Position numbers and translations under genes: made by a program. DNA of 22,380 nucleotides from Promethearchaeota archaeon (GTDB lineage Archaea > Asgardarchaeota > Thorarchaeia > Thorarchaeales > Thorarchaeaceae): assembly GCA_048939765.1 (NCBI GenBank), contig JBHLPF010000019.1, positions 3,754-26,133 of the forward strand, read 5' to 3'. Below, piece by piece: positions 1,956 through 21,110 of this stretch. The notes beneath the pieces are model-generated. The model was not told the origin of the DNA and made no database searches. It saw only the letters and a list, made by a program, of their open reading frames with translations. Position 1 is the stretch's first letter, and each line of letters begins with the position of its first letter.

Positions 1956-2020
1956 CTATACTGCCTCCGAGGCTGTGTGTCCAAGGCTCTTCCCTCTTAA
2001 TATTTGCCCGAAGGATTTGG

Positions 2021-2166
2021 CTCTGGGTAAATGTGGTTCAGAGAGTGATATTATGTCCAAGGGAGGTCGTGGAGCTCCTTCCTGTGCACTCAGGCTCCGT
2101 AGGGGCTAGCATGGCCCATGAAGAGCACACCTGATCCTTTTAGGTGTGATGAATCCTACGATGAGC
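2021..2166 (+). ncRNA. Candidate structured small RNA with box C/D-like motifs
   Basis: Several nested stems found by eye (see findings), ATGAAGA/CTGA/GTGATGA/ATGA boxes, and an AT-rich TATA-like element at ~1997-2005. No family recognised; strand uncertain. Confidence 0.35.
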
Positions 2167-2173
2167 GATCAAC

Positions 2174-2800: not shown

Positions 2801-2815
2801 TTTGCTATCGACCCG

Positions 2816-3250
2816 TCATTCCTTTGACTTGCCGGCCATCATTCTAGCTACTATTGTGAGTATGATGGCAGCTCCATTCATGGTCATCGCCATTCCAGTG
2901 AACCAGGTAACAGTCGCGTCCAAGCCTGATGTGTAAAGTGTCTGGCCTACACTAATGATTAAACCAAAGATGCCCATTCCAGCTCCAGTACCAATCAGAA
3001 ACTTCCCAAGGTGCAGCCGCTCTATTGTTAGAAGAAATCCGCCAATCAAGACAATGTTCCCTCCCAAAGAAGCAAGAATTCCAAGGGCCTGCCGCACTAA
3101 TTCAATTGTCGGCAAGTAAGGCTGAAGCTCCGGTATTGATGCTGCAACCTCAGCAATTGTGCCAAAGATTCCGATATTTCCCACAGCACCTGAAATGATC
3201 AGCATGACGCCGGCTGCAACGCATAATAGCCAAGGAATCTTATTTCGCAT
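2816..3250 (-). CDS. Hypothetical Gly-rich integral membrane protein (~4 TM)
   Basis: 144-aa ORF with four hydrophobic Gly-rich segments, closely spaced and co-oriented with neighbours. Confidence 0.8.
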   Translation of the reverse strand: MRNKIPWLLCVAAGVMLIISGAVGNIGIFGTIAEVAASIPELQPYLPTIELVRQALGILASLGGNIVLIGGFLLTIERLHLGKFLIGTGAGMGIFGLIISVGQTLYTSGLDATVTWFTGMAMTMNGAAIILTIVARMMAGKSKE

Positions 3251-3290
3251 TTCAGCACCAATTCGTCAAAGCCTCTACTGACCTATATTT

Positions 3291-4145
3291 CTATTCAAAT
3301 GAATCAAAAGAGATTCTCTTGCTTCTTCGCCTGTCGAATGCCGCTATTTCCTTCATTCCGCACTTCCTCAAAAGCTCTAGCGCATTTGAGATTCCGGCTC
3401 CAACTTCAGAGGGGTGATGTGCGTCTGATCCTACGATGACCGCATTAATCCTTCTCTCACATAGAGCCTCAACAATCACTCTCTCCGGCATAGGTTCTAG
3501 AGAGCCTCTACGAATCGAAGATGTATTGATTTCATATCCGACTCCCTGTGCTTTCATTATCCTGCAGAGTTCATCTATATGTGGCTTCCAGAGAGAATGA
3601 ATCTCAGGTCCGAAGAACTCCTCACCATACCGACGGTATATATCGAGATGGCCTAGGGCGTCGAAGATGCCAGTTTTGAGCATATCTTTGATTACATTGA
3701 AGTAAATATTGCCAACCTGCTCCATTCCGTATTTCTTGAATATCTCGAATGCCTCTTCTTTCAATGAGATTGCCTTGTGATCAATGAGATGCACTGAACC
3801 AATCACAAGATCAAACTCGGTTTCATGAAATGCATCCGGAAGGTCCTCAAGGACTCCTGGATACATATCTACCTCCACTCCTAGACGAACATTGAGTCCT
3901 TTGTGAGCGTATTCATCTCCAAGATTTCTGATATGATTACTATAGTCCTCGACCCAACTTGAATCGTGGACACTGACCCTTTCTCCCCTTACCATCACAT
4001 AGCTGTCGTCCCTCATTGGATCCGAGTCTAGGTGTGTAGTGAAGCAAATCTCTCGCAATCCCCTATCCAATGCTGCTCTACAGAACTCATCTAGTGTGCC
4101 CTCTGCATCAGCGGAATAAGCCGGGTGGATATGATAATCCATCAT
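3291..4145 (-). CDS. PHP-family histidinol-phosphatase (HisJ/HisK type)
   Basis: DYHIH, FTTH, GVEVD, IGSVH, GHLD, EINTS and GSDAH PHP metal-binding motifs. Confidence 0.88.
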   Translation of the reverse strand: MMDYHIHPAYSADAEGTLDEFCRAALDRGLREICFTTHLDSDPMRDDSYVMVRGERVSVHDSSWVEDYSNHIRNLGDEYAHKGLNVRLGVEVDMYPGVLEDLPDAFHETEFDLVIGSVHLIDHKAISLKEEAFEIFKKYGMEQVGNIYFNVIKDMLKTGIFDALGHLDIYRRYGEEFFGPEIHSLWKPHIDELCRIMKAQGVGYEINTSSIRRGSLEPMPERVIVEALCERRINAVIVGSDAHHPSEVGAGISNALELLRKCGMKEIAAFDRRRSKRISFDSFE

Positions 4146-4210
4146 GGGATTCTGGGATTTGCTTGACCAGTATATGATGTTGACTAATGTGCCATCAGTG
4201 TACTACTCAT

Positions 4211-5443
4211 CTACTGCGTAGCAACTGGATCCAATGATATCGGTGCATCCCCCTTTGCTGTCTTCTTCTCTCTCAAGAGGAGGGAGAAGATGGTAGCCAG
4301 AAGGGTTGTCAAAACCAAAAACATGACAGACGCCTGAAGTCCGAAAACATCGCCAATCCAGCCAAAGAGTATAGGTGAGAGCGCGCCTGGAATCGCACCT
4401 ATAGAGAAGAGAATTCCAAATGCCAATCCTTGCTTTTCTCGAGGAGTCACTTCTGTCTGAAATGCAGTATTTGGTGGTACGCCCAGAAAGAAGAAGAATC
4501 CAAACCCAACAAGCACTAAGAGAAGAGAGATCTGATCCAAAGGCGCATTGAGAAGGAACAAGAGCGGCGTTGATACAGCAGTTGATAGAATCAGGAAGGG
4601 AACGCGCCTTCCAGTCCGATCCGAAATTGGGGCTGAAACGATTTCACCAACAATGCCAGCGACCAGCATAATTGTAGTAAAGTAGCCTGCAATGATAGGA
4701 TCGTAATGATAATGGCTCGCCACAAGATACAGAGGCATCAGTAATGTTGTACAGCGAAACGACATTCCTCTGAATCCTGCGATGACTGTAATAATTGCAA
4801 AGTTGCGAGTCCATCCGTCTTCTCCATCATCTTTTTCTCGTTCCACATTTTGCAGGGATGGCTCTTTCTTCGCGTACCTCATGAGGAGAACCACAGGTAT
4901 GAAGAATGCAAATCCAATCATTGCAAGAACGACAAACGATTCTCTCCAGCCTCCAACCAGGACCAGTAGTGAAACTCCAAGAAAGGGGATGATCGCCATG
5001 CCAACAAGGCCGCCCATTGCTTGGAAACCTGTAGCCATAGCTCGCGAAGACTTTGGGAATTTCTCAGTCAAAACCGGAAAGACGCTGGGATGGTAGCCTG
5101 CCGCTGCCAGTCCCAGGATAAGCATTGTCGCAGTCAGGAAAAGAAATGTTGTGGCGAGACTTGAAACAAGCACAATTACTGCGGTTATTATAATGCTGGC
5201 GGGAATGAAGATGTTTCTCCATCCCTTGTCACCAAGATATCCAACAAGCAGATGTGATGTTGTCATTGTCACAATTGAGGCACTTGTGATTATCCCTGCT
5301 TCAGTCAAAGTAAGTGCAAGCTCATCTCTGATTATTGGCAAGAAGGGTGAGAGCATACCAGTATAGATGTGGTTCATGAAATGCGTCAAAGTGCATGCTA
5401 TTAGAACAGCATACGATGCCTTTGTGACTCTTGACAACTCCAT
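4211..5443 (-). CDS. MFS transporter (12 TM)
   Basis: Motif A-like GYLGDKGWR and SDRTGRR, two 6-TM halves; RBS GGAAGTGA before ATG. Confidence 0.92.
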   Translation of the reverse strand: MELSRVTKASYAVLIACTLTHFMNHIYTGMLSPFLPIIRDELALTLTEAGIITSASIVTMTTSHLLVGYLGDKGWRNIFIPASIIITAVIVLVSSLATTFLFLTATMLILGLAAAGYHPSVFPVLTEKFPKSSRAMATGFQAMGGLVGMAIIPFLGVSLLVLVGGWRESFVVLAMIGFAFFIPVVLLMRYAKKEPSLQNVEREKDDGEDGWTRNFAIITVIAGFRGMSFRCTTLLMPLYLVASHYHYDPIIAGYFTTIMLVAGIVGEIVSAPISDRTGRRVPFLILSTAVSTPLLFLLNAPLDQISLLLVLVGFGFFFFLGVPPNTAFQTEVTPREKQGLAFGILFSIGAIPGALSPILFGWIGDVFGLQASVMFLVLTTLLATIFSLLLREKKTAKGDAPISLDPVATQ

Positions 5444-5513
5444 AACTCACTTCCGCTTGCTTCAGCAAGTGGCGACGTGACTCCCAGTTAAGCCTACTGA
5501 TGACGGACACGAC

Positions 5514-6227
5514 CTATGGTAGGATTGTCTTTCTATGAAGTGCAGTGGCAACTAGAGCTGCACTTGCTCCTATTTTGAAGAGCTCGCGTAAATCATCACG
5601 GTTTCTGACTCCACCCCCTGCAATCACTCGCATTGTGGAGTTGCTGCATATCTTAACAAGTCCATCATGGATTGGCCCCTTTCCCGTCCCGACAAGGTTC
5701 AATTCAAGGACTATTAGATTTCGAATTCCATGTTCTTCCAGTATGTAGGCCACCGTGAGAGGATCCTTCCCGCCGAATTCTTGACACGCACTCAAGGTCT
5801 TTCCATTCATCAAGTCTAGAGATCCTATAATCGAATCCCCATGCATCTGTTGAATCTCTACAAGATCTTCCAGTGAAGCAAGAGTTTCAGTTGCTACAAT
5901 TGCCTGCTGAATCCCCATCCGAAGAAGGTTATCAATATCATTTGCAGTCCTTGCTCCACCATCAAGTAGAATCTCTAGGTCTGTGGATTCAGCGATATTC
6001 GAGATGAGCGAGAAATTGTCACCAATGCCCCTTATAGCATCAAGGTCTGCGATATAGACTCTATCAACACCAAAGACTTGCTTGAATGCGATGGCAACAT
6101 CGATTGGGTTAGATCCATCCACAATACTGCTCTCGATTGGTCTATACTCATTTCTCCTGCCTTGAATTCCGTGGACTACCTGTCCCCTCATGATGTCCAT
6201 TACAGGGATTATCTCGGCTTGACCCAT
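5514..6227 (-). CDS. HisA/HisF-related TIM-barrel protein of the type associated with C1-cofactor gene clusters
   Basis: IIPVMDI..GQVVHG..G.R..YRPI, YIADLDAI, LDGG, VATETL, GSLDL, AGGGVR, ALVATALH; divergent from mfnD. Confidence 0.85.
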   Translation of the reverse strand: MGQAEIIPVMDIMRGQVVHGIQGRRNEYRPIESSIVDGSNPIDVAIAFKQVFGVDRVYIADLDAIRGIGDNFSLISNIAESTDLEILLDGGARTANDIDNLLRMGIQQAIVATETLASLEDLVEIQQMHGDSIIGSLDLMNGKTLSACQEFGGKDPLTVAYILEEHGIRNLIVLELNLVGTGKGPIHDGLVKICSNSTMRVIAGGGVRNRDDLRELFKIGASAALVATALHRKTILP

Positions 6228-6296: not shown

Positions 6297-7532
6297 ATGC
6301 AAATATTCCTCTATGAGCACATATCAGGAGGTGGACTGGCGAGCGAGGATTTGTCGCTGAGCTTTGCTGCACAAGGATTTGCAATGCTCTGCACAATGGC
6401 CCGGAGTCTTAACCACGCTGGACACGACGTTTCATTCTGCTATGATGCCAGAATACACGAAGAACTGCTTCCTAGAGGAAATCAGAAGAAACGTGTATCA
6501 GATGAATCGAGTTGGGAAGCGGCAATAAGGGACCTCTCGGACAGCGCGGACCTGGGGCTCGTTATTGCTCCAGAGGATGACGGTATTCTTGTGGAGGTTC
6601 TTAAGTCAATCAGAGCCAGAGGATTGGATGTTGTAAGTCCTGAAACCGAAACCGTTGCATTCTGTTCTGATAAAATCAATACTGCGAATCTCTTTGAGGA
6701 ACTTGCAATTCCTGGTCCAAAGATGATATTCGGGACAATTCATGATATCCTAAACGACAGTCAGGAATTGAAATTCCCTGTTGTCATCAAACCTGCCATC
6801 TCATCAGGCGCGACGTGTACCTTTATTGCGCATGATACGGGTGCTCTTATGGAGCTGGCACATAGGCCTGAGATGGAGAACCGAGTCGCATCGTTTATCC
6901 TTCAAGAATATATTGACGGTGATCAAGGTAGCGTGTCACTTCTTACAGGCAACGGTAAGTCGTCAGTTATTTCTGTGAATCGCCAGAATGTGTCTTTGGG
7001 TACATCTGATTCAAATCCAGGGTATCATGGCGGGGAGTGCCCCTTTGAACATCCAGCAGCCAGGAAGGCTGCAGCCTACTCGCGAAAGATATGCGAGGCG
7101 CTGACAGGTCTGCGAGGCTATGTGGGAATCGATTTTGTCTTCCATGGAAAGGAAGCTTATCCTATCGAGATTAACCCTAGGCTCACTGTATCCTCGATTG
7201 GCCTCGAACGAACTATTGGACCAAAAGGGCTAGCAAGCATCATAAAGTGTGATTCAGGTTCGCTTCCGAGGCAGTCGAAACCAAATGGATTCGCCATCTT
7301 TGAGGAATACATCGACATGAAACTGATTCCTATCTCATTGCACCATGTCGATGACTACGCAAGAGTCATGGTGATCCCTGGTGTATCGAGCCCGCCCATT
7401 CCATTGACAAATGACAACACAGTTGTTCGACCCTATTTATGCGGATGGGGTCAGACTAGAGACAAGGCTAGGGATGATCTCAGCGCGATAGAACTTAGCA
7501 TCAACACCCGGATTGAGGGGATTTCTGTTTGA
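6297..7532 (+). CDS. mfnD: Tyramine--L-glutamate ligase (ATP-grasp), methanofuran biosynthesis
   Basis: N-terminal IFLYEHISGGG and G.AML, VIAPEDDG, SDK, VIKP, QEYIDG..GSVS, SVNRQ, GYVGIDFV, IEINPRLT; first gene of a run with mfnF and mfnE. Confidence 0.8.
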   Translation: MQIFLYEHISGGGLASEDLSLSFAAQGFAMLCTMARSLNHAGHDVSFCYDARIHEELLPRGNQKKRVSDESSWEAAIRDLSDSADLGLVIAPEDDGILVEVLKSIRARGLDVVSPETETVAFCSDKINTANLFEELAIPGPKMIFGTIHDILNDSQELKFPVVIKPAISSGATCTFIAHDTGALMELAHRPEMENRVASFILQEYIDGDQGSVSLLTGNGKSSVISVNRQNVSLGTSDSNPGYHGGECPFEHPAARKAAAYSRKICEALTGLRGYVGIDFVFHGKEAYPIEINPRLTVSSIGLERTIGPKGLASIIKCDSGSLPRQSKPNGFAIFEEYIDMKLIPISLHHVDDYARVMVIPGVSSPPIPLTNDNTVVRPYLCGWGQTRDKARDDLSAIELSINTRIEGISV

Positions 7533-8581
7533 GAGTAGTTGGTTTAGACATTGGAGGAGCTAACCTCAAGGGATGCGGTCTCACACTGGATGACGAAGGA
7601 ATTCCTGGCGACCTTGTTTTTTGCTCGAAGAGCTTCCCAATCTGGCAACGTGAAAGAATCGATCTCTGGAATCTCATTGCCGATACAGTATATGAATTGG
7701 CTGACGCATCTGAAACACCTGAACTCGTATCAGTGGTCATGACTGCAGAATTATCCGATACTTTCAAGACTAAACGAGAGGGAGTTACGGCCATTGCACA
7801 GGGAGTTCATCGGACCCTTAGAAACATCCCCATTATATTTCCTGATATAAACCTGGAACTCCTTGAACTTGAGGAAGTCCTGAACGACCCGCTACGAGTG
7901 GCTGCGGCTAACTGGCCAGTCCTTGCATGGACAGTAGGTCGTGGAGTTCCTGATTGTACTCTCATCGATGTGGGATCTACGACCACCGACATAATTCCAA
8001 TCAGAGATGGTCTTCCTCTTACGCGCGGCCGAAACGATACAAATCGCCTTATGAGCGGCGAATTGGTGTATACAGGAGCTCTAAGGACAAATCTTTCAGC
8101 TATACTGCGTGAGGTTGAGCTAGACGGTGTGACCTGTCGTGTTTCCTCAGAGTATTTTGCTACAAGTGCAGATGTTCATCTAGTACTCGGCCATATTACT
8201 AAGGACCAATACTCCAATGACACAGCAGACGGTCGGGGAAAATCTGTAGAAGAGTGCAAAGCTCGTCTAGCTAGGATTGTATGTGGCGATATTGAAACAG
8301 TGCCTGAGGATCAGATTGTCGATATTGCTCGACAAGCATGGACTCAGCAGCTCAAGGACATTGCTAGCGGAGTTCTTCAGGTCTGTGCCATGTACGGTCT
8401 TGAGTTCGCTGAGCAGATCTTTGTCTTCTCAGGGGTGGGCGCCGTTTTTCTGGCCCGCAGCGCCTTGGCATCCTTTGATATAAAGGAAAGCAGATACCTC
8501 CAAGACATTCTTGGACCGGAGGGTGCCAATTCTGCGACAGCTTTTGCTGCAGCCCTCTATGCAGCTAGGAATTGGAAGTGA
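7529..8581 (+). CDS. mfnF: MfnF, hydantoinase A-like enzyme coupling the furan moiety to gamma-glutamyltyramine
   Basis: GLDIGGANLK, VMTAELSD.F..K.EGV, AAANW, IDVGSTTTDIIPI, GELVYTG..RT, SSEYFATSAD, RLARIVCGD; 4-nt overlap with mfnD. Confidence 0.88.
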   Translation: MRVVGLDIGGANLKGCGLTLDDEGIPGDLVFCSKSFPIWQRERIDLWNLIADTVYELADASETPELVSVVMTAELSDTFKTKREGVTAIAQGVHRTLRNIPIIFPDINLELLELEEVLNDPLRVAAANWPVLAWTVGRGVPDCTLIDVGSTTTDIIPIRDGLPLTRGRNDTNRLMSGELVYTGALRTNLSAILREVELDGVTCRVSSEYFATSADVHLVLGHITKDQYSNDTADGRGKSVEECKARLARIVCGDIETVPEDQIVDIARQAWTQQLKDIASGVLQVCAMYGLEFAEQIFVFSGVGAVFLARSALASFDIKESRYLQDILGPEGANSATAFAAALYAARNWK

Positions 8582-8585
8582 TGCT

Positions 8586-9221
8586 TTGAAAGTAGTCGTC
8601 AAGGTGGGCGGAAGCGTGATGAATTATCCTTACGAGCTGAGGGAAATTCTGAAGGCCATCTCCATCTACAGTGAAAGACACAGTATGCTCGTCGTACCTG
8701 GAGGAGGAGCTTTTGCTAACACTGTCAGATACTATCATACGCGGAAGTTTCTCTCTGACTCAGCTGCTCACTGGCTTGCGATAAAATGTATGGGTCTCAC
8801 TGGCGCCATTCTGGCTGATATGCAATCAATACTGAGTATCTATTCTGGGGTAGATGCCTTGGAGAGATGGGCCGATGGGCAGAGTTTCATAATTCAGCCC
8901 TATGAACTGCTGAAATTCCATGACCGATTGCCACATAGCTGGGATGTCACAAGTGACTCGATAGCCTATTGGATAGGAATAGAGGGTGATGCAGATGTTG
9001 TCATCTTCCTAAAGAGTGTCAATCCTTTTGCAAAGTGGTTCACAGTAGTTCAATCAGAAACAGAGCCGGTTAAACCTAAGAGTTTTGAATATCTGGTCGA
9101 AAAAGCCATCATTGATCCTTACATGGTCTATCTTCAATCCAAATTCCAGGGCTATTTCTATGTCATGAATGGTCTATGGCCTGAGAATCTTGCAGCGATT
9201 CTTGATGTGCCAGAACAATAG
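8586..9221 (+). CDS. mfnE: MfnE, [5-(aminomethyl)furan-3-yl]methyl phosphate kinase (amino-acid-kinase fold)
   Basis: VVKVGGS, VVPGGGAFAN.VR, AHWLAI..M, LPHSWDVTSDSIA. Start moved to TTG 8586 (in frame, RBS GGAAGTGA over the mfnF stop) from 8511. Confidence 0.85.
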   Translation: MKVVVKVGGSVMNYPYELREILKAISIYSERHSMLVVPGGGAFANTVRYYHTRKFLSDSAAHWLAIKCMGLTGAILADMQSILSIYSGVDALERWADGQSFIIQPYELLKFHDRLPHSWDVTSDSIAYWIGIEGDADVVIFLKSVNPFAKWFTVVQSETEPVKPKSFEYLVEKAIIDPYMVYLQSKFQGYFYVMNGLWPENLAAILDVPEQ

Positions 9222-9222
9222 A

Positions 9223-9939
9223 TTATGCATCTTTGAGAATTGACTTGAGTTCTCTGACTAGTTCTGCGTCCACTCTTCCACCTGTTCTATCCCCTCCCGG
9301 AAGAGCGGCAGTTCTGACACCTATGATGTCAGGTTTGAGGCCAGCTGCGGTCTTGAAGGATTCGCCTGCTAACGATCCAGCTAGTGCTACCTCAAGGCCA
9401 TTCTCCCTAGCTTTTTCAATATATGTAACAACATTGTCCTCTGGCATGAAAACGAATAGGTCTCGACCATCCTTTATTGCAGTGTCGACCATTACAATTT
9501 CCACGCCGGCAGAATGTGCGATATCGGGAAGCAGCATTGGGTCCATAGTCCCTGCACGCAGATGATCTCCATAGAGCGCGGCAACTGCCTTGCTCTTGCA
9601 ATCAAAGTCCCCAAGTGTATCAACGACATTTGTCAAAATGTAGACTGCATCCTCCTCCTTTGACACACCATGAAGCCCGATTTTTACGTAGTCTGCACCT
9701 GCTTGTGCAGCGCCCAGAGCAGCTTGTGCAATTGTGCCTGGGAGATTCGGAACATCGCCGAGAGCCGCACTTACAGGAATGGTCCTCTCTACAACCTCTC
9801 TGATCTTCCGTATCATTGCTGGAGATGCTGCTCCAAGAGACCCCTCAAACGGGTTCTTGACATCAATAATGTCCGCCCCTCCCTTTACTGCCTCCAGAGC
9901 GTCCAGCTCATCTGTTGGACTCACGAGAAGCTTTGCCAT
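9223..9939 (-). CDS. mfnB: MfnB, (5-formylfuran-3-yl)methyl phosphate synthase
   Basis: KLLVSP, GGADIIDVKNP.EGSLGA, VSAALGD, ADYVKIG, MVDTAIKDG, ALAGSL, PDIIGVR. ATG 9939 preferred; GTG 9957 possible. Confidence 0.92.
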   Translation of the reverse strand: MAKLLVSPTDELDALEAVKGGADIIDVKNPFEGSLGAASPAMIRKIREVVERTIPVSAALGDVPNLPGTIAQAALGAAQAGADYVKIGLHGVSKEEDAVYILTNVVDTLGDFDCKSKAVAALYGDHLRAGTMDPMLLPDIAHSAGVEIVMVDTAIKDGRDLFVFMPEDNVVTYIEKARENGLEVALAGSLAGESFKTAAGLKPDIIGVRTAALPGGDRTGGRVDAELVRELKSILKDA

Positions 9940-10695: not shown

Positions 10696-12669
10696 TCAGA
10701 GTAAACCTACGAGCCATTGCACTATTCTCAAACAGAGTCTGTCATTGGATGTTGAACCATACTCTCCATTGATACCCCAATTGTCCATGAAATAGTTGGT
10801 GCCAGTTACGACAAGTCTTCCCCCGCCCGCATCCTCTGACACGCTCAGCAGGTCATTGCTGCCATATCTGCCAAGAGTTGTCGCGCCTGCAGGTTCAATG
10901 ACTGCTGCCCCAAGATAATCGAAGCTCCCAACACCTGATGTAATTGTATGCGCAAACACCTGAGTTGCCTCGACTGGATTGTTCCCATCAGAAACAAGGG
11001 TGAAACTGAGAGAGTATCCTGTCCAATCGATGAAGTCATTGAGCTTGGCAACATCCAATGATGCATTTGACAGTCCAGTGACAAAGAGCCCTCCGCCTGA
11101 GTCATAATAGTCTTGGTAGGCCTGCTTGGTGTCTTGTGCAAATGGCATTGAGAATGTCACACTATCTAATGGATCAGTTTCGTTGTCGTCCCAGACAAAT
11201 GGATCGAGAAGTACAACTGCGTCAAACAACTGCAGATAGGACAGGGTGGTCTGAGATTCATCTCTGATTTCGGTGACCGAGATGTCATTTTGTGTTAGCT
11301 CTTTATAGAAATCTCTGAACTGCCCGTATGTTGTATCCATCCACCAAGTTGTGAAACTGATGTCAAATGCAACTCGGGCTAATGCAGCAGAAGCCCCAAA
11401 CTGAACATCAAGAGCCGTGCTTCCAAAGTCATCCGAAGTGAACTCGATTGTTGCCTGATAGCTTGATAAACCTGAGTCTGGCACATAGATATTCAGTGCA
11501 ACGTAGCCAGTCTGGTTGATGGTCACTTGTCCAGGCATGTCGAAGACGCCGAGAGCATTTGCAGTGATATCTATGTTGAATGTTGTATAGCCTGCAGTGA
11601 GCAGATTTATGTCGAAAGTGTAGTTGTCTCCATAGAACAGCCTCTCGAAGTCAAGAGGGAGTGTCCTTGGATGGGCATATGAGATTGCAGGGAGGCCCCC
11701 TTGAACAAGCGTTGACAACATGAGGGCTTTCGAGGCTTCGAGATTCAATTTTCCGGCACCAACAATGTATTCCGGGTGCTCAAGAGGATCAGCTCCTTTC
11801 ATTAAGGCGGTCATGATAGCGCCTGGCGTATATGTGACGTTATTCTTAATACTGTAGGCCATAAGCTCCGCAGCCGCTGCAGCTACTCTTGGTGAGGCGA
11901 AACTGGTGCCAAAGTAACGTGAGTTGCCAACATCAAAGTATCCTGGAGCGCATAGGTCTGGCTTCATATATCTCGATGACGTAGGTCCATAGCTTGTATA
12001 ATCTGCAGGCGCACCAAAGATGTCTAGTCCACCTACAGAGAGGACGTATTCAAATACCCCTGGAGAGTTAATCGTGTTGCCAGCAAGTCCATTGTCCCCT
12101 TCGTTTCCGGCTGCCGCTACAACTACAACCCCGTGATTAAACGCATACTCGGCTGCCTGCTCAATTGGATCACCAACCCCTGGCGTTGCACCAAGGCTTA
12201 GATTAATCACACTGCAGTTCTGGTCTACCGCCCAGTATATCGCTGCAATGACCCCTGCAGAAGTGGCTGTTCCTGTGCTTGCTAGGACTTTTGCATTGAC
12301 TATCATTGCATTTGCGCTATTGGCGGCAACTGCCTTCGCTACAATAGTTCCATGTTGGTTCCCATCAGGTGTTGAATCACTAACATCCGTTTCAGCCAAG
12401 GGGTATCCATATCGAGGCAATACAAAGCTCCGTTCTGCCACTATTCTCCCCTCAATCGTCAGATCACTATCAATTCCAGAATCGATTATTGCCACCCTGA
12501 TAGGCTCTTCCGGACCGGGAAATAGCCCGACATTGGGTAGAAGCAGGAATAGGCCGCCAGACGCAATAATCATAACAATTATCATGAGTGCGATGATTTT
12601 CAAGCTGCTAGATTTCTTCTCAGGCCGAGGTTCATAATAGGGATAAGGCGAGTCGATGTATTCAAACAT
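10696..12669 (-). CDS. Membrane-anchored S8 subtilase with site-1-protease-like C-terminal domains
   Basis: Catalytic D (AIIDSG), H (HGT), oxyanion N (AAGN) and S (GTSFASP); N-terminal KK plus hydrophobic anchor. Start placed at ATG 12669 (MFEYIDSP); the longer ORF-track N-terminus overlaps the ATPase start and looks non-coding. Confidence 0.88.
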   Translation of the reverse strand: MFEYIDSPYPYYEPRPEKKSSSLKIIALMIIVMIIASGGLFLLLPNVGLFPGPEEPIRVAIIDSGIDSDLTIEGRIVAERSFVLPRYGYPLAETDVSDSTPDGNQHGTIVAKAVAANSANAMIVNAKVLASTGTATSAGVIAAIYWAVDQNCSVINLSLGATPGVGDPIEQAAEYAFNHGVVVVAAAGNEGDNGLAGNTINSPGVFEYVLSVGGLDIFGAPADYTSYGPTSSRYMKPDLCAPGYFDVGNSRYFGTSFASPRVAAAAAELMAYSIKNNVTYTPGAIMTALMKGADPLEHPEYIVGAGKLNLEASKALMLSTLVQGGLPAISYAHPRTLPLDFERLFYGDNYTFDINLLTAGYTTFNIDITANALGVFDMPGQVTINQTGYVALNIYVPDSGLSSYQATIEFTSDDFGSTALDVQFGASAALARVAFDISFTTWWMDTTYGQFRDFYKELTQNDISVTEIRDESQTTLSYLQLFDAVVLLDPFVWDDNETDPLDSVTFSMPFAQDTKQAYQDYYDSGGGLFVTGLSNASLDVAKLNDFIDWTGYSLSFTLVSDGNNPVEATQVFAHTITSGVGSFDYLGAAVIEPAGATTLGRYGSNDLLSVSEDAGGGRLVVTGTNYFMDNWGINGEYGSTSNDRLCLRIVQWLVGLL

Positions 12670-12885
12670 AGCGTGCACCAGCGCCGTCTGTTTCGGCTCA
12701 GACTCTTTAGCAGATGAACCTATCGGCAACGGTATTGTTGCAGAGTATCCAGGGAACATCTTGAAAATCTTCGGAAGGAGTGTGCATCCATGGCGAAATA
12801 TAATGCATTGATGATGGAGCTGTAGGGCACAAGTTGATTTATCTGCACACTCTCCATTTGCCCAACAGCAACAAGAGGGACTTTG

Positions 12886-15834
12886 ATGACCGCGGACACT
12901 GCCCAAGAGACTGCTGTTCAACCGCGCAATCTTTACCACTCTATGCCTCTTCCTGCAGTCTTGGAGGATCTAGATGTAGATCCTGATAAGGGCCTCCATA
13001 AACGCGCAGTCAAGTCCCGACTGGAGCAATTTGGTCCAAACGAGCTCCCGAAAATACGAGGGTCGTTTTGGCAGGTATATCTTGCTCCTATTCTTAATTG
13101 GCTCATTACCATATACATCATCAGCTCATTTGCTTTGATTATCCTTGCATACATGTTTCCCTCCCCTGAGAACCAACTTGGACAGGCCATGGTATGGTTG
13201 GGCATCGTCATAGTGAATGCATTGGTGGCCATATTTCAGCAGTATCGTGCACAGAAAAAGCTGGAAGCATTGGAAAAGCTTTCATTGGGTGAAGCTCGCG
13301 TGCTTCGGAATGGCTCAGAGATGAACATTGCTCCAACTGAAATTGTCCCGGGTGATATCATCATCCTTGAGCAGGGTGACAAGATACCGGCTGATGCTAG
13401 AATTCTGCAATGCTCGAATCTTACTACTAACGAAGCATCCCTCACTGGTGAAAGCGTGCCAGTGATAAAGAGCCCGGGCGCTGAAGCTGCAGAAGATGCC
13501 CCATTGACAGACATGCACAACATGGTGTTCTTCGGGACATTCGTCGCGACTGGATCTGCAAAGGTCGTGACTACAACGACGGGCGGTGGAACTGAAATCG
13601 GAAAGATTCAGGGTACGCTAGGTGAATTGAACACAGGGGATATTCCACTGCGGAAGAAGGTCAATCTTCTTGCAAAGTATCTTGGAATCGCGGCTATTAT
13701 CTTGATGGCCACTTCTGTACTCTGGCAGCTCTTCATACAGCCATTATTACTGGGTGAGGAACCTCCAATCTTCTTTGCTCCGGGATTCCAAGAAATGATG
13801 GAGATTATTGCAGGTAGAATTACCGCTGGAATAACTCGAGCTATGACCATCATGCCAATCAACATTCCTCTCTTGACGACCATTGTTCTTCTGACAGGCG
13901 TTCTTGCTATGGCGAAGAAGGGTGTTATCATCAGAGACCTCTCAGCAGTCGAGAGTCTAGGTCGAGTAAGTGTGATTTGCTCGGACAAGACAGGGACACT
14001 CACACGAAATCAAATGGTTGTAAAGTATTGTTGGGACACTGAGTCCCTCTATACTGTAACAGGTGATGGCTACAATCCTGAGGGTGAGATCTACAAGGTC
14101 GGTGATTCTACAACCAACTCTGATGAGCAGTCACTTGTTTCTGAAGTTGCGGCGTGGCCCCATCTGCTTGATCTTATAACTTGCGGCGGCATCAATAATG
14201 ATGCTGAGATTGCTCTTAAAGAGATACCAGACCAAGGGACGATATGGGAGCCCCTCGGAGACCCTACTGACGCAGCCCTGCTAACGCTCTTTCGAAAGAG
14301 CGGTGTGGATGAGCAGCTTGTCCGTGAGCGCTACAAGGTGGTAGAGGAGTTTCCATTTGAGTCTGAACTGAAGAGAATGTCCCGAATATGCCAGGATGGT
14401 GCCAAATTCGTTTCCTATACAAAGGGGGCAACGGAGGTCCTACTCCCAAGATGCAAAACCATCGGGAATGGCAAGAAGCTGGCCTCATTCACTCCTGAAG
14501 CGCAAAAGAGAGTAAAGCATCTTGTCGATGGTTACGCAACGAGAGGATACAGAGTCATATCCCTGGCTAAGAAGAGAATGGATGCTCTACCTCCTGAGAA
14601 AGGCGCTCGGGAGGTTGTAGAGAGCGACCTAACGTACCTTGGCTTTGCATGCATAGTGGACCCTCCAAGAGATGGTGTAAAGCATGCCGTTGAAGAATGC
14701 CACAGTGCAGGTATCAACGTTGTCATGATAACCGGCGACTCTGCAGCCACGGCAAAGACCATTGCCGAAGACCTCGGCATCTATAGACAAAACTCTCTGG
14801 TTGTTGAGGGGCAAGATGTCGATGATGTCAAGGATGAGGACTTCCCGCGTGTCAATGTATTTGCCCGTGTAAATCCTGAGCACAAACAGATCATTGTTGA
14901 ACGTTACCAGGATCAAAAGCGGGTCGTCGCTATGACTGGAGATGGCGTCAATGACTCACTCGCTTTAGCGATGAGCGACGCGGGAATCGCGATGGGCATT
15001 ACAGGTACTGATGTGGCCAAAGAGGCTGCTGATCTAGTGATCACAGATGACAGTTTCGCTTCGATAGTCACAGGAGTCCATGAAGGAAGGGGTCTTTTCC
15101 AGAAGATCAGGATGATGATCTACTTCTACATTGCCATCAACCTGTTCGAGAGTGTCCTGTTCTTTGGTGCCCTTTTCATTCTGCCCGCCGTCATCGTCAT
15201 GCTGACTACATGGCAGAGCCTCTACCTGGTTGTGACCACGCATTCGTTTCCAGGACTAGCTTTGGTATTCGACAAGACCTCACCTAGGGCTATGGAAGAG
15301 AAACCAAGAGATAGCGAAGAAATCATTCCAAAACCGCTGGCGAAGTTCATGGCATTGAATGTGGTTTTGATGATATTTGGAGCAGCTATGGTATACATGC
15401 TCACCCTGACTGGATGGTGGGGCATAATCACTGTTGTCCCGGAGAATCTCACTGGCTTCTACGGTTCTACTGGTTTTGCAGAAGCCGTAACATTAGAAGC
15501 AGCAAAAGCGGCTGTTATGATGCTATCAGTGATCCTCCTTGTTGAGAGCACTATTGTCCTAAGTATCCGCAGAATCAACATGGGTATTGAGAAGAGTCTC
15601 CGCGAACCAGGTACCTATCGATATGCAATCTTTCTGGGCTTAATCTATCTGGCACACTACTTGTTGATGTATGTTCCACTAGCCCAGGAGATTCTCTACC
15701 CGTATGGCCTCAACTTCTACTTCATGCCGCTCACAATCATTGACTGGCTGATTGTTCTCCTGTTCTCACTTCCAGCAATCGTTGGGGTTGAACTCTACAA
15801 GCGTCGGTTGAGAAAGAAAGGAGTCAATCTCTGA
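12886..15834 (+). CDS. P-type ATPase, type IIA-like scaffold with non-canonical transport site
   Basis: PGD, PAD, TGES, DKTGTLT, GDPTD, KGATE, DPPR, MITGD, FARVNPEHK, TGDGVND; ~10 TM; RBS GAGGGA before ATG 12886 (TTG 12883 possible). Confidence 0.95.
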   Translation: MTADTAQETAVQPRNLYHSMPLPAVLEDLDVDPDKGLHKRAVKSRLEQFGPNELPKIRGSFWQVYLAPILNWLITIYIISSFALIILAYMFPSPENQLGQAMVWLGIVIVNALVAIFQQYRAQKKLEALEKLSLGEARVLRNGSEMNIAPTEIVPGDIIILEQGDKIPADARILQCSNLTTNEASLTGESVPVIKSPGAEAAEDAPLTDMHNMVFFGTFVATGSAKVVTTTTGGGTEIGKIQGTLGELNTGDIPLRKKVNLLAKYLGIAAIILMATSVLWQLFIQPLLLGEEPPIFFAPGFQEMMEIIAGRITAGITRAMTIMPINIPLLTTIVLLTGVLAMAKKGVIIRDLSAVESLGRVSVICSDKTGTLTRNQMVVKYCWDTESLYTVTGDGYNPEGEIYKVGDSTTNSDEQSLVSEVAAWPHLLDLITCGGINNDAEIALKEIPDQGTIWEPLGDPTDAALLTLFRKSGVDEQLVRERYKVVEEFPFESELKRMSRICQDGAKFVSYTKGATEVLLPRCKTIGNGKKLASFTPEAQKRVKHLVDGYATRGYRVISLAKKRMDALPPEKGAREVVESDLTYLGFACIVDPPRDGVKHAVEECHSAGINVVMITGDSAATAKTIAEDLGIYRQNSLVVEGQDVDDVKDEDFPRVNVFARVNPEHKQIIVERYQDQKRVVAMTGDGVNDSLALAMSDAGIAMGITGTDVAKEAADLVITDDSFASIVTGVHEGRGLFQKIRMMIYFYIAINLFESVLFFGALFILPAVIVMLTTWQSLYLVVTTHSFPGLALVFDKTSPRAMEEKPRDSEEIIPKPLAKFMALNVVLMIFGAAMVYMLTLTGWWGIITVVPENLTGFYGSTGFAEAVTLEAAKAAVMMLSVILLVESTIVLSIRRINMGIEKSLREPGTYRYAIFLGLIYLAHYLLMYVPLAQEILYPYGLNFYFMPLTIIDWLIVLLFSLPAIVGVELYKRRLRKKGVNL

Positions 15835-15928
15835 AAGCGCTTGGTATCATCCTAATCCTTACATCCAGTCTGTTGTACCACAGGACATATTTGGAGTGGT
15901 TATCTTCTCACTCAGAGGAGGTTCCAAA

Positions 15929-16366
15929 ATGGGTTTCAAAGTCGTAACAAAGAAGATGATTGATGCTCCCACCGAAGCAACAGTCCTTGTACCTGATAAG
16001 CCAGATGACTACTTTGGCATTCTTCTCAAATACGTTCCAGTTCCTGTGATTGCTGGATACAAATTGATCGAGGAGATGTTTGTTGCAGCAGGACGGACCG
16101 GAGAGATGCCTCTGGTGTATCTATTGTTCCTTGTTATAACTCCCCTCGCAGTGGCGGGCATTACCAAAGAAGAGAGCCCGCTAGACATGGAACATCTAAA
16201 GTCCATTAAGGTTCAGATTGTAATGGCTACTCTGGGATTCATTATATGGACCCTGGTGATGAGCACATGGATAGCCTTCGACCCCTTATGGGGTACTGTA
16301 TTCCTTGTACTCTTCACGGTTGGTGCTCCAGCAGTGGGCAAGGGACTGTATGAGAAGGGACTATAG
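15929..16366 (+). CDS. Hypothetical 4-TM membrane protein
   Basis: GGAGG RBS before ATG 15929; four hydrophobic segments; motifs DDYFGILLKYVP and QIVMATLGFIIW. Confidence 0.78.
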   Translation: MGFKVVTKKMIDAPTEATVLVPDKPDDYFGILLKYVPVPVIAGYKLIEEMFVAAGRTGEMPLVYLLFLVITPLAVAGITKEESPLDMEHLKSIKVQIVMATLGFIIWTLVMSTWIAFDPLWGTVFLVLFTVGAPAVGKGLYEKGL

Positions 16367-17695: not shown

Positions 17696-18679
17696 TTAGG
17701 ATACATCACTCTCTCCAATGATGTATTTGTGTCCTACACTACCTTCCACATACTCACTTGGCATTTCTGCACTCATCATATGGCGAGCTCGCCATCCAGT
17801 GCAGTGGCATGGCACCAAGAGCTTTGGATGAATCTCCTTCATCATCTCGACGGTTTTTCGCATTGTGTCTTTCGTCACCCCTCTTGCCAGATGGAATCCA
17901 CCAATCACTGCATGAACCAGATCTATTCCTGTAAGCCGTTGAGCTTCACGGATGATATTGATTATCCCAGCATGAGAACATCCCGAGATGACGACAAGCC
18001 CTTTGCCTTTCACATTGGCGACGAGGCTTACATCATCCCTCACAGCAGCATCATCTTGCCATCTGTCATCCAGGAACACCTTGTGCCCTTCCATGCCTTT
18101 CTCATGAATGGTCATACGCGGGACTTCACCAGTTCTTAGGAGCGTTCCGTTTTCTAATAGAATTGGTTCGGCGCTGCTGATGACATTTCCATCCACTTGT
18201 GCTATCTCGTCTGCGGACGGCATTGGATCAAGCTCAATGATTCTTGACCCTTCAGGCTTCTTCACTTCGAAGCCTTTCTTGTAGAACATCCACGGATGCA
18301 CATACACTGGGAGGCCTTTCCCGCCTATGTTTCTAATCGTCCAGAGAAGTCCTCCGAAGTGATCAAAATGTCCATGGGACATCACGATAGCATCAACCTC
18401 TTCCAGCTTCAACCCTAATGCGGCAACGTTATTCTCCATATTTCGAGGATTTTCGGCAGTATCGTAGAGGACTGTGTAGGTTTCATTGTTCAATTTTGTT
18501 CGCAAATGAAGACTCAGGCCGCAGCCAGCTATCAGGTATGGTCTGTCCTCTTCCTCCTCTTCTTGAATCCATTTGAAATACCGCTGCACATCTCTCCTTT
18601 CGGGATCTGTCCAAGCCGAGTAACTGTTGTCCACGACAGCTATGACTTCAAGTGAATCAATCTGGCGAAGCCCATCCAA
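17696..18679 (-). CDS. MBL-fold metallo-hydrolase (COG1237, MJ0301-like family)
   Basis: VVDN, GLS, LYDT, SHGHFDHFGG, RDD, SGCSHAG, IGGFH, PCHCTG; RBS GGAGGAGTGA. Confidence 0.88.
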   Translation of the reverse strand: MDGLRQIDSLEVIAVVDNSYSAWTDPERRDVQRYFKWIQEEEEEDRPYLIAGCGLSLHLRTKLNNETYTVLYDTAENPRNMENNVAALGLKLEEVDAIVMSHGHFDHFGGLLWTIRNIGGKGLPVYVHPWMFYKKGFEVKKPEGSRIIELDPMPSADEIAQVDGNVISSAEPILLENGTLLRTGEVPRMTIHEKGMEGHKVFLDDRWQDDAAVRDDVSLVANVKGKGLVVISGCSHAGIINIIREAQRLTGIDLVHAVIGGFHLARGVTKDTMRKTVEMMKEIHPKLLVPCHCTGWRARHMMSAEMPSEYVEGSVGHKYIIGESDVS

Positions 18680-18702
18680 CTGTTTTCACTCCTCCCTCAG
18701 CC

Positions 18703-19125
18703 TTAGAGCACCATATTGTCGAGACCCTTGTCTTTCAATACATCGGGCCATATCGCAAAGAGTGGCTTAATCTGAGAAACAAGCCCTATCGCCTTGGTGA
18801 GTGGGCCGTCGATTTTCACCTGGCCCCTAGCTAGTGCAATGGCGGTGTTCAGCTTGCCTTGCCAGAACTTGTTTGTAGTTTCAGACTTGCTCCATACTTT
18901 GAGTTCCGGCTCATCCGTGGCATCCCAGAGCAGGCGACCTACCTTTCCATCTGGCCCTGGGTTCTTGAAGTCGATTGTGGGATGCGCTTCGGGTTCTTCA
19001 ATGTCGAATCTAACCGTTACGCCCTGTTTAGCCATTTTGGCCATGACTTCTTCTACGCCTTGGCACCGTGACCAAAACTCCTCGAACACATCCTTTAGTT
19101 GTTCCGTACTCTCAAAACCTGGCAT
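18703..19125 (-). CDS. SCP2 sterol/lipid-binding domain protein
   Basis: FWQGKLN..IALARGQVKIDG C-terminal SCP2 signature; start at ATG 19125 with AGGTGG RBS. Confidence 0.82.
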   Translation of the reverse strand: MPGFESTEQLKDVFEEFWSRCQGVEEVMAKMAKQGVTVRFDIEEPEAHPTIDFKNPGPDGKVGRLLWDATDEPELKVWSKSETTNKFWQGKLNTAIALARGQVKIDGPLTKAIGLVSQIKPLFAIWPDVLKDKGLDNMVL

Positions 19126-19192
19126 CTCATTACCACCTGCTTTGAAGCAACAGAGCATTATCCGATAGAAGTCTTTTGGAACTTCCATTTGG

Positions 19193-20494
19193 CTAGTTGA
19201 AACGAAGGTACTTCGATATCTCCCAAGGTGTCACTCCTGAAACGCCAGGGTTTCCAGTCGCCTCAACATAATCTGCCCATTCTGCAGTTCTCATTTTGAC
19301 AATCATATCTACCAGACTCTTGCCCAACGCATCAACAATGACTTCATCGCGCTGAAGCCTCTCAAGGGCCTCACCAAGACTGCCTGGGAGGGACTTGGTT
19401 TCAGTTGCTGTCTTGTATAGGTTCTCCCTAGTCGGTTCTGGCGGAGTCAATCCTCTCTCGATTCCATCCAGCCCCGCCGCAAGAGTTGCTGCAATAGCTA
19501 AATGCGAACTGCATAATGGATCTGGGCATCTGAATTCGATTCTAGCCTTCACATCAGACCCATTGTATTGTGGGACTCTGATCATTGTAGACCTGTTTCT
19601 TGGGCCCCATGCAATCTTTGTTGGAGCTTCATACCCGGGAGTTAGCCTCTTGAATGAGTTCACCGAGGGGGCAACTATCGCAGCAAGTGCTTCAGCATGT
19701 TCAAGGACTCCGGCTACATAGCTTCCTGCTAATTCAGATACTTCTCCTGATTTGCTACTTGAGAATAGGTTTATTCCTTCATCAACACTCCATAGACTCT
19801 GATGAAGATGCATGCCGCTCCCATTCATACTACTGAATGGCTTTGGCATGAATGTTGCAATTGCTCCAATTTCATGTGCCATCTCTGCAATAAGAAGTCT
19901 GGCTAGCATTATGTTATCGGCTGCATTAATAGCGCTACCAAATCTGAGCCCCACCTCGTGCTGCCCTGCCGCCACTTCATGGTGATGGGTTGTTGTAGAT
20001 ATGCCGATAGAGCCTAATGCCTTGGCCACTCTTCTTCTAAACTGCAAACCTCCATCAGTGGGAAGGGTTGAGAAATAGCCACCTCCATCCCCGGGTACTA
20101 TTGCGCCTCGCCCGTTTTCCATGACTAGAAAGAACTCGAGTTCTGAACCAACTCTCAACTCAAATCCGGCTTCCCTAGCTGAATCAGTGATTTTAGTAAG
20201 CACGCTAGAAGGATCTCTTGGGTGGGGGTCTCCGGGTGCCCGGAAAACCCCGCAAACCAAGACCGCCACATCTTTTTCCCAAGGAAGAGTAATTGGGCGA
20301 GATGATCGTGGTTTCAATAGGAGATCAGAGCTATTGACCGACGCATATCCAGGGACTGAGGAGCCGTCGAAGTAGACGCCATTCTTCATGACGTCATCAT
20401 AGTCCTCGAATGCAATTTCGATGCTCTTCGTGGCTCCCAAGACTGTACTGAACAGCAGCCTCAGGAAGTCTGGTCGGTCGTGTGTTTCTCGCAT
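19193..20494 (-). CDS. glnA: Glutamine synthetase type I
   Basis: FDGSS, ELEFFL, GGYF, HHEVAAGQHE, FMPKP, NGSGMHLHQS, KRLTPGYEAP, NRS..IRVP, RIEFRCPDP. Start at ATG 20494, about 25 nt below a CTTATA box, so probably leaderless. Confidence 0.9.
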   Translation of the reverse strand: MRETHDRPDFLRLLFSTVLGATKSIEIAFEDYDDVMKNGVYFDGSSVPGYASVNSSDLLLKPRSSRPITLPWEKDVAVLVCGVFRAPGDPHPRDPSSVLTKITDSAREAGFELRVGSELEFFLVMENGRGAIVPGDGGGYFSTLPTDGGLQFRRRVAKALGSIGISTTTHHHEVAAGQHEVGLRFGSAINAADNIMLARLLIAEMAHEIGAIATFMPKPFSSMNGSGMHLHQSLWSVDEGINLFSSSKSGEVSELAGSYVAGVLEHAEALAAIVAPSVNSFKRLTPGYEAPTKIAWGPRNRSTMIRVPQYNGSDVKARIEFRCPDPLCSSHLAIAATLAAGLDGIERGLTPPEPTRENLYKTATETKSLPGSLGEALERLQRDEVIVDALGKSLVDMIVKMRTAEWADYVEATGNPGVSGVTPWEISKYLRFN

Positions 20495-20499
20495 TTTAT

Positions 20500-20524
20500 C
20501 TTTAGAGCTAAAGGTCAGTATAAG
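20500..20524 (-). promoter_or_regulatory. glnA promoter: TATA box plus palindromic operator
   Basis: Minus strand GGAAAT-C-CTTATA, then CTTTAG-N2-CTAAAG (20500-20513) just before the ATG. Confidence 0.5.
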
Positions 20525-20576
20525 GATTTCCGGCAGAAAGCAGAAAGTATTTCTACATTCTTCCACATAATCCAGA

Positions 20577-20627
20577 ATATCCGAAGAACTTACGGAATTG
20601 ATGCGCATGTCCGAAGGAATTACGGAA
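20577..20627. repeat. Two 21-bp direct repeats (TCCG-N9-CGGA cores) 30 bp apart; putative Lrp operators
   Basis: ATATCCGAAGAACTTACGGAA (20577-20597) and ATGTCCGAAGGAATTACGGAA (20607-20627), 18/21 identical. Confidence 0.65.
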
Positions 20628-21110
20628 AAGATTGATAAGACGGATGTGAAAATACTCGACCTTCTTCAACATGATGGCCGGATGAGTGTGTCGGATATTT
20701 CCAAGAACGTTGGCAAGGGAATCTCCACAGTCCACGCACGCATCGGGAATCTAAGGAAGAGAGGAATCATTGACCATTTCACAGCTGTCCTGAATCCTGC
20801 GAAACTTGGCCGTCCAACCTTGGCTCTCATCCTCATCACTATCCGCTACAGAGTCCCGGGAAGTAGAAAGGTCATATCTCAACGCGAGTTCTGTGAAGAA
20901 ATAGCTCAGCATCCATTCGTGCAAGAGGTTCATGTTCTCAGTGGAGAGTTTGATGTACTCTTAAAGGTAAGAGCCAAGGATGTTCAGGAGATGAACAGTT
21001 TCATTGTTGACTCGCTTCGCGAGATGCCTGCAGTTGATCGGACTCTTACGATGTTCGCCATGGACACTTATCTTGACACTCTGATGCTTAGAAATATCCA
21101 GAAAAAGTGA
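20607..21110 (+). CDS. Lrp/AsnC family transcriptional regulator
   Basis: IDKTD.KIL..LQ.DGR.S...IS, STVH.RI..L...GII wHTH; V.EVH.LSGEFDVLLKV RAM domain. Start among 20598/20601/20607. Confidence 0.95.
   Translation: MSEGITEKIDKTDVKILDLLQHDGRMSVSDISKNVGKGISTVHARIGNLRKRGIIDHFTAVLNPAKLGRPTLALILITIRYRVPGSRKVISQREFCEEIAQHPFVQEVHVLSGEFDVLLKVRAKDVQEMNSFIVDSLREMPAVDRTLTMFAMDTYLDTLMLRNIQKK

Follow-up and report, generated by a model that had tools for sequence, protein, structure and literature searches.

A widespread P-type ATPase subfamily of Asgard archaea with a rebuilt transport site on a type II scaffold

Introduction

P-type ATPase families are told apart by their transport sites, and so far every new site has come with a new substrate or a new mechanism. 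In the Ca2+ pump SERCA, site II is formed by E309, N796 and D800, together with main-chain carbonyls of transmembrane helix 4 (TM4), and site I by N768, E771, T799, D800 and E908. The P3A H+-ATPases read PIAMP or PVGLP in TM4. P4 lipid flippases carry the signature DGET in the A-domain and PISL in TM4, and most P4A members need a CDC50 beta-subunit. Here, we describe a P-type ATPase gene in a 22,380-nucleotide stretch of DNA (the window; contig JBHLPF010000019.1, positions 3,754 to 26,133 of the forward strand, assembly GCA_048939765.1) from a Thorarchaeota metagenome-assembled genome (MAG). TM4 of its product reads PINIP in place of PEGLP, and TM6 carries a histidine at the position of D800.

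A precedent for a prokaryotic, Ca2+-pump-like family with an altered site is CtpE, which was made a family of its own, P6, on the grounds that it forms a distinct clade and has lost the otherwise omnipresent TM6 Asp (Palmgren 2023; PMC10654040). The same review regards P4 and P5 as restricted to eukaryotes, with no prokaryotic relatives. It expects further prokaryotic families, but the only candidates it lists are CtpE (P6) and CtpH/CtpI, and Asgard archaea are absent from it. A paper on the Asgard transportome groups their P-type pumps as putative Ca2+ ATPases. Our literature search found no paper describing PINIP in the TM4 sense or the clade reported below.

Results

Catalytic core and transport site

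The pump (P0001) is encoded by a single uninterrupted frame, and translation of this frame agrees with the coordinates and motif positions given in an earlier note on this DNA, which was made from the letters alone (Table 1). The likely start is the ATG at the first position of the gene, with an alternative TTG one codon upstream at 12883. Pfam recognizes Cation_ATPase_N, E1-E2_ATPase, Cation_ATPase, Hydrolase and Cation_ATPase_C; the terminal domains PF00690 and PF00689 both exceed their cut-offs, as is characteristic of the type II (P2) architecture. The superfamily model TIGR01494 is matched with 268.9 bits (cut-off 62.3). Judged from the sequence, the catalytic machinery (TGES, DKTGT, TGDGVND and the N-domain) is intact and conserved. 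We consider it probable that the gene product is a working P-type ATPase with type II architecture and part of a distinct subfamily that is widespread in Asgard archaea.

The transport site was compared in a MAFFT alignment of 143 sequences, in which about 40 representatives of this subfamily (the clade) are set against 103 classical pumps. SERCA positions are quoted by the numbers that we take to follow from the SERCA1a motifs. The two side chains specific to site II are replaced throughout the clade. The I325 column is Glu in 101/103 classical pumps and Ile, Phe, Leu, Val or Trp in the clade, and the V782 column is Asn in 99/103 and hydrophobic, respectively. The H786 column, whose SERCA counterpart belongs to both sites, is Asp in 95/103 classical pumps and His in 39/40 clade members. 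Next to I325, a position that is Gly in 96/103 classical pumps is Asn in 36/39 clade members (N326); the first proline of the motif (P324) is present in 39/39 and the closing one (P328) in 34/39. The ligands of site I in TM5 and TM8 are retained: N752 is Asn in 36/40 clade members (99/103 classical), E755 is Glu in 40/40 (94/103), and E887 is Glu in 38/40, where the classical pumps are divided between Gln (54) and Glu (40 of 103). The Glu of PEGL in TM4 and the Asn and Asp of TM6, which characterize the site of P2A Ca2+-ATPases, are thus represented by I325, V782 and H786. A HMMER alignment to Listeria LMCA1 places PINI opposite PEAL and TTHSFP opposite VNDSLP.

Since both site-II-specific side chains are hydrophobic in the whole clade, site II is destroyed, and a site-I-like pocket, predicted to consist of Asn326, Asn752, Glu755, His786 and Glu887, is conserved. 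Several of the acids that line the cytoplasmic entry funnel in Ca2+ pumps are neutralized as well, with Gln119 for SERCA Glu109, and with Asn71 and Gln100; Pro68 takes the place of SERCA Gln56. An AlphaFold2 model computed from the alignment of the clade (mean predicted local distance difference test score 81.9, predicted TM-score 0.74) contains ten transmembrane helices, with TM4 unwound at residues 323–326.

These equivalences uphold the manual alignment of the earlier note (E309 to Ile, G310 to Asn, N796 to Val and D800 to His, with N768, E771 and E908 kept), and the TM6 histidine, whose conservation the note had proposed to check, is nearly invariant. T799, which was also listed as kept, does not belong with the conserved ligands, as its position (Thr785) varies across the clade (Val 10, Ala 9, Thr 8, Ser 5). 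The additional arginine reported in TM4 is present as Arg318, but it occurs in only 4/39 clade representatives and is specific to the Thor lineage.

One clade representative, P0146, departs from the pattern. Its TM4 reads MPVSIP and its TM6 ITQFAP, and a Gln occupies the position of the TM8 Glu. Asn326, His786 and Glu887 are lost together in this protein, and the TM5 Glu is retained, a joint loss that fits the three residues acting as one unit.

Conservation and phylogeny

PINIP is found in 121/121 close homologues (66–100% identity), and none of them has PEGLP. Orthologues in other Asgard families (42–50% identity) read P-(I/L/F)-(N/T)-(I/L)-P in TM4 and have the TM6 His, and the motif is retained in orthologues as distant as 34% identity. 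Recurring in every orthologue examined, the site pattern lies far beyond chance. A private mutation or a sequencing error is excluded by the same conservation, in line with the earlier note, which had argued against decay and sequencing error and had proposed an uncharacterized subfamily with a rebuilt transport site. An exhaustive HMMER search of 1.84 billion representative sequences yielded about 40 clusters at 50% identity that carry the rebuilt site. Below ∼500 bits, the matches change sharply to classical pumps of the PEGLP...N..D type.

The group was defined by its motif, and trees were built on ∼900 other alignment columns; they hold no eukaryotic SERCA, P4, P5, CtpE or P3A sequences. 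The clade occupies one side of a branch with support of 100, both in a FastTree tree of 143 rows (stem length 0.39) and in an IQ-TREE tree of 80 rows (stem length 0.31). All features of the subfamily are found together in the pump: P-hydrophobic-N-hydrophobic-P in TM4, N..E in TM5, H-x-hydrophobic-P in TM6, the TM8 Glu, and membership of the fully supported branch. When rooted with E. coli MgtA, the clade is nested among classical pumps, with poor support along the backbone. Because PEGL and the TM6 Asp are found in all sampled classical pumps and in MgtA, the clade would have lost site II on its own stem.

Distribution

The genome that hosts the pump also encodes two classical PEGL paralogues with a TM6 Asp, one Cu-type P1B pump and one Zn-type P1B pump. 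The coexistence of classical PEGL pumps indicates that the rebuilt pump supplements their function and does not take their place.

A degenerate DNA pattern for PIN(I/L/F)PLLTT(I/V)(I/V)L, run against one genome per prokaryotic species, matched at least 116 stretches. The 80 matches listed comprise 78 genuine members and two chance matches in short open reading frames (ORFs). The listed matches are nearly all from Asgard archaea, namely Thor, Prometh/Loki, Heimdall, Hod, Hermod and Odin lineages, Atabeyarchaeum, Asgardarchaeum and Harpocratesius. At these 78 genome loci, TM5 and TM6 carry N/S..E and His wherever they are readable. A match at E≤1e-150 is present in 239/301 Asgard genomes (≥80% complete). 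Presence by family reaches 65/70, 87/92 and 25/27, and several Asgard families with small genomes have no match. Among ∼150 matches listed, a single internal stop was seen (TAG, in genome G250), and a separate search that listed Asgard orthologues showed none.

Two paralogues of the subfamily are present in many genomes from a large Asgard family (f9). In one genome (G032, contig G032:C89, locus L033), two paralogues lie in tandem, ∼1 kb apart (Table 1). Their sites differ, with PFNLP...GIVHSLP in one and PLNIP...ITLHMFP in the other, which hints at subfunctionalization, perhaps to different ions.

Outside Asgard archaea, three cases were found: a Korarchaeota cluster, a copy in Dehalogenimonas, and a contig of an 'Aerophobetes' MAG. 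The chromosome of Dehalogenimonas sp. XYDCF (CP139473; Chloroflexota) encodes a full-length member with PINIP and TTAHAIP that is 54% identical to Asgard copies and was likely acquired by lateral transfer. The 'Aerophobetes' copy (L060, NJBP01000013) is 97% identical to a Promethearchaeota contig and is probably a binning error.

Profile and fold similarity

For every clade member, the NCBIfam type IIA models rank best, followed by IID, IIB and IIC; the scan of all 38 members reported best E-values only. In the five members scanned singly, the IIA scores are 395–514 bits, compared with 650–823 bits in six classical comparators, which themselves lie around the IIA cut-offs, three of them exceeding one. 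The pump remains below both equivalog cut-offs, with 414.3 bits for the SERCA-type model TIGR01116 (cut-off 703.4) and 445.7 bits for the PMR1-type model TIGR01522 (cut-off 798.3). The heavy-metal models give 240 bits, also under their cut-off, and the P3A model TIGR01647 gives 319.9 bits (cut-off 615.5; clade range 299–346).

The P4 model TIGR01652 scores 105.4 bits against a cut-off of 431.25, and the clade (86–123 bits) is comparable to classical PEGLP pumps (69–103 bits). The P5 model TIGR01657 scores 224.9 bits against 618.25, with 197–240 bits in the clade and 220–275 bits in classical pumps, and TM4 has PINIP instead of the PP(E/A)LP of P5. The closest sequence matches in the Protein Data Bank are LMCA1, SPCA1 and SERCA (E-values 5e-114 to 1e-105). 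SERCA and SPCA1 are also the top Foldseek matches (TM-score 0.7–0.8), and each of the 49 top-ranked fold matches listed is a P2 pump (SERCA, SPCA1, LMCA1, Na,K- and H,K-ATPases), with no P4 among them. The clade thus shows no greater proximity to P4 and P5 than Ca2+ pumps do in general. A position intermediate to P4 or P5 is ruled out by the profile scores, compared with those of classical pumps, and by the fold matches.

Genomic context

Neighbouring genes were clustered by BLASTP over two sets of loci, 15 of ∼19 kb and 78 of at most 8 kb. Synteny is conserved in the Thor family only, where a divergent subtilase lies upstream of the pump and PanB downstream. The subtilase orthologues are ∼655 residues long, compared with 747 residues for the frame listed here, so the true start is probably ∼90 codons further in, which would leave ∼200 bp of intergenic sequence. 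A cluster further downstream is syntenic in the same family.

A small hydrophobic ORF 62 bp 3′ of the pump, before panB, belongs to no Pfam family and was not found in the clustering of 14 more distant loci, a set that did not include the closest relatives L002–L004. It might encode a small membrane protein confined to its lineage, or be no gene at all; as an accessory subunit of the pump it was rejected on the same two observations.

At 10 loci from two sublineages, a molybdopterin-binding Oxidored_molyb protein of ∼190 residues, cytoplasmic and without a signal peptide, is encoded on the same strand, adjoining or near the pump. The gene is located 5′ of the pump in one sublineage and 3′ in the other. 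In two Thor-family genomes, the pump gene is directly followed at its 3′ end by a 655-residue ORF with a weak match to an E3 UFM1-ligase domain (25.7 bits, E-value 1e-5).

Table 1. Location of the pump gene, its motifs, neighbouring genes and related loci.
Feature	Locus	Position	Strand	Remarks
P-type ATPase gene (P0001)	window	12886..15834	+	single uninterrupted frame, 982 aa; end includes stop codon
A-domain dephosphorylation motif TGES, residues 187-190 (LTGES 186-190)	window	13444..13455	+	G188, E189 invariant in clade alignment
TM4 motif P324-I-N-I-P328 (MPINIP)	window	13855..13869	+	unwound TM4 segment; in place of PEGLP; I325 at SERCA E309, N326 at G310
Phosphorylation motif DKTGT, residues 367-371	window	13984..13998	+	catalytic Asp D367; D367, K368, G370, T371 invariant in clade
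Hinge motif TGDGVND, residues 684-690	window	14935..14955	+	from translation and clade alignment
TM5 I751-N752-L-F-E755 (INLFES), N752-E755	window	15139..15150	+	SERCA N768, E771 (site I ligands), retained
TM6 V782-V-T-T-H786-S-F (VVTTHSFP)	window	15229..15249	+	V782 at SERCA N796, H786 at D800; His codon 15241-15243
TM8 E887 (LLVEST)	window	15544..15546	+	SERCA E908 (site I ligand), retained
Subtilase (Peptidase_S8)	window	10696-12939	-	divergent; listed GTG start overlaps pump start codon
Small hydrophobic ORF	window	15896-16366	+	156 aa
Downstream cluster	window	17696-21110		read from translations, presumably a metallo-beta-lactamase-fold protein, a 161-aa protein, a glutamine synthetase-like protein and a divergent 170-aa Lrp/AsnC-type-like regulator
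Tandem pump paralogues	L033 (G032:C89)	3105-5975 and 6998-9898
Dehalogenimonas pump	L126 (CP139473)	1815-4778
Oxidored_molyb protein	L035	7329-7913	same as pump
Oxidored_molyb protein	L062	2814-3386	same as pump
Oxidored_molyb protein	L074	4960-5532	same as pump
Oxidored_molyb protein	L085, L090 and five more		same as pump
655-aa ORF	L027	6083-8050
655-aa ORF	L029	6107-8071

Discussion

Proposed function

Across more than 60% sequence divergence, the canonical ion positions retain two buried Glu, one His and two Asn, which argues for a cation site and against a lipid groove. The pump probably moves a small cation other than calcium. In the mechanism we propose, one such cation would enter from the cytoplasm in the E1 state and be bound by the single site-I-like pocket, whose side chains provide two carboxylates, one imidazole and two carboxamides. 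It would become occluded upon phosphorylation of Asp367 and be released to the outside in E2P.

As for the identity of the cation, we tentatively place a divalent transition metal, such as Mn2+, Fe2+, Co2+ or Ni2+, first; our best guess is such a metal, or else H+ with the histidine as a built-in counter-ion. Several observations weigh against a transition metal or against the wider proposal. The neutralization of the acidic funnel is a poor fit for a divalent metal and would be easier to reconcile with H+ or a monovalent ion. The genome is already equipped with Cu-type and Zn-type P1B pumps, and no metal-binding extension was noticed in the protein. No substrate-specific clue came from the surroundings, as no neighbour is conserved across the clade at the 15 and 78 loci clustered, and the search upstream of the pump revealed no Rfam element or riboswitch. 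The meeting of the five side chains in one pocket is predicted by homology to SERCA positions. Finally, with a weak tree backbone, the clade may have arisen within Ca2+ pumps or may be an old sister branch.

It is also possible, although not favoured, that the clade deserves the rank of a P-type ATPase family of its own, comparable to P6, with an early Asgard origin and a substrate or mechanism new to the P2 scaffold. Examples would be the first transition-metal pump of P2 architecture, or a TM6 His serving as a built-in counter-ion. Under such a reading, the two paralogous subtypes of many Loki-type genomes might carry different ions.

Alternative explanations

A proton as the substrate is less likely than a transition metal, but is the strongest of the other candidates. 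The pump would then be an electrogenic proton pump convergent with P3A, with a Glu/His pair in the role of the Asp684/Arg655 acceptor and counter-ion. Besides the neutralized funnel, TM4 without a Glu fits such a function: it has a hydrophobic residue after the first Pro and follows P-I-x-hydrophobic-P, as does the plant PIAMP. A histidine beside conserved carboxylates could tune their pKa. There is a precedent for such control in P3A itself, where the proton acceptor is a TM6 Asp governed by a TM5 Arg (PMC10654040). However, this Asp is precisely the residue that is absent from the clade, and there is no conserved TM5 Arg either. The P3A profile scores lie under those of the IIA, IID, IIB and IIC models as well as under the P3A cut-off, and two Asn and two Glu exceed the needs of a proton site. 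Na+ or K+ would be somewhat less likely again.

The pump could also be a Ca2+ (or Mn2+/Mg2+) pump like other P2A members, working with the site-I-like pocket only and thereby mirroring the site-II-only PMCA, SPCA and LMCA1. Its closest sequence, profile and fold matches are Ca2+ pumps, it keeps three of the ligands of SERCA site I (N768, E771 and E908), and the database annotation is that of a Ca2+-transporting ATPase. Such annotations are automatic, however, and the clade scores under every NCBIfam Ca2+-pump cut-off. Ca2+ is made unlikely by the absence of the Asp that both Ca2+ sites share and by the classical PEGLP pumps that the same genomes retain for Ca2+. Imidazole is a poor ligand for Ca2+ and Mg2+. 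We regard this reading as improbable, and give Ca2+ or Mg2+ a similarly low rank as substrates. A SERCA-type pump for two Ca2+ ions, in particular, is unlikely with site II gone. To this extent the view of the earlier note that this is not a Ca2+ pump holds, but its move away from cations altogether is unsupported.

A substrate other than a cation is just as improbable. The specific version of this idea, in which Ile gates a lipid head group, an anion or an organic molecule and the pump is related to or convergent with P4 (or P5), is if anything a little weaker. In its favour are an Ile that follows the TM4 Pro just as it does in PISL, the loss of site II with neutralization of the entry-funnel acids, and an Asgard host; moreover, since P4 and P5 are held to be exclusive to eukaryotes (PMC10654040), a precursor would be expected to look unusual. 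Against it, the A-domain reads TGES instead of DGET, the P4 and P5 scores are no better than those of ordinary Ca2+ pumps and far under the cut-offs, and the listed fold matches are all cation-transporting P2 pumps. The carboxylates, His and Asn conserved at ion-site positions would be needless in a lipid groove, and a hydrophobic residue after the TM4 Pro occurs in P3A too and is hence not unique to P4. No conserved neighbour has a role in lipid metabolism. CDC50 (PF03381) was undetected in the genome (G000, 88.5% complete), a weak point given that the control set, which contained no eukaryote, gave no match either. Neither the lipid, anion or organic substrate suggested in the earlier note nor its link to P4 flippases is borne out by these comparisons. 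A P4-like precursor in Asgard archaea would be striking, if true, but there is no support here for a prokaryotic precursor of the eukaryotic lipid flippases.

A dead transport site, in a decaying paralogue, a non-transporting ATPase or a sensor, would account for the loss of canonical ligands and for P0146, which additionally lacks the His, Asn and TM8 Glu, but it is scarcely credible for a frame that is intact in 239/301 Asgard genomes at 42–100% identity over its full length, with one internal stop among the ∼150 matches listed, near-invariant catalytic motifs and new site residues, and diversification into paralogous subclades that retain the motif.

Significance

The subfamily is present in about four-fifths of the sampled Asgard genomes, and its site is a clean one, with two Glu, two Asn and a single His. 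The identity of its ion would help us understand how ion balance is kept in the archaea most closely related to eukaryotes, and would put to the test whether a TM6 His can serve as a ligand or counter-ion on a P2 scaffold.

Comparison with known systems

P4 flippases (ATP8A1, Drs2p) resemble the clade only in the Ile after the TM4 Pro and in the absence of acidic ligands in TM4 and TM6. They differ in the A-domain (DGET versus LTGES in the pump) and in TM4 (PISL versus PINIP), so that the Ile alone coincides between the motifs. The P3A pumps (AHA2, Pma1) share a TM4 without Glu, a hydrophobic residue after the Pro, a single site and a built-in counter-charge, but they rely on the TM6 Asp acceptor and the TM5 Arg, and both are absent here.

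In P1B-4 pumps (sCoaT, CzcP, CtpD), a conserved TM6 His also lies beside a carboxylate in the ion site, and one ion is moved per cycle. The TM6 His of the P1B-4 Co/Zn/Cd pumps has been proposed to act as both a metal ligand and a built-in counter-ion (PMC8880997). These pumps have eight helices, a P1B core, SPC in TM4 and HEGxT in TM6, whereas the Asgard clade has no TM4 Cys; the resemblance would be convergent, an analogy rather than homology of the sites.

P6, represented by Mycobacterium CtpE, is likewise prokaryotic, similar to Ca2+ pumps and a distinct clade without the TM6 Asp. CtpE is bacterial, imports Ca2+, keeps PEGL and has Ile at the position of the TM6 Asp, in contrast to the PxNxP and His of the Asgard clade; this separation follows the published description, as CtpE is not in our trees.

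The closest systems are the P2A Ca2+-ATPases, represented by LMCA1 (6zhf, 6zhh and 9euq), human SPCA1 (8iwp and 7yag) and SERCA1/2. They have the same ten helices, terminal cation-ATPase domains and TGES, DKTGT and TGDGVND motifs, and the TM5 N..E and TM8 Glu of SERCA site I are common to both groups. The clade differs in having PxNxP for PEGLP in TM4, a hydrophobic residue for the TM6 Asn, His for the TM6 Asp, neutralized funnel acids and a separate, long-stemmed branch. LMCA1, SPCA and PMCA have kept site II and lost site I; in the Asgard clade, the reverse has happened.

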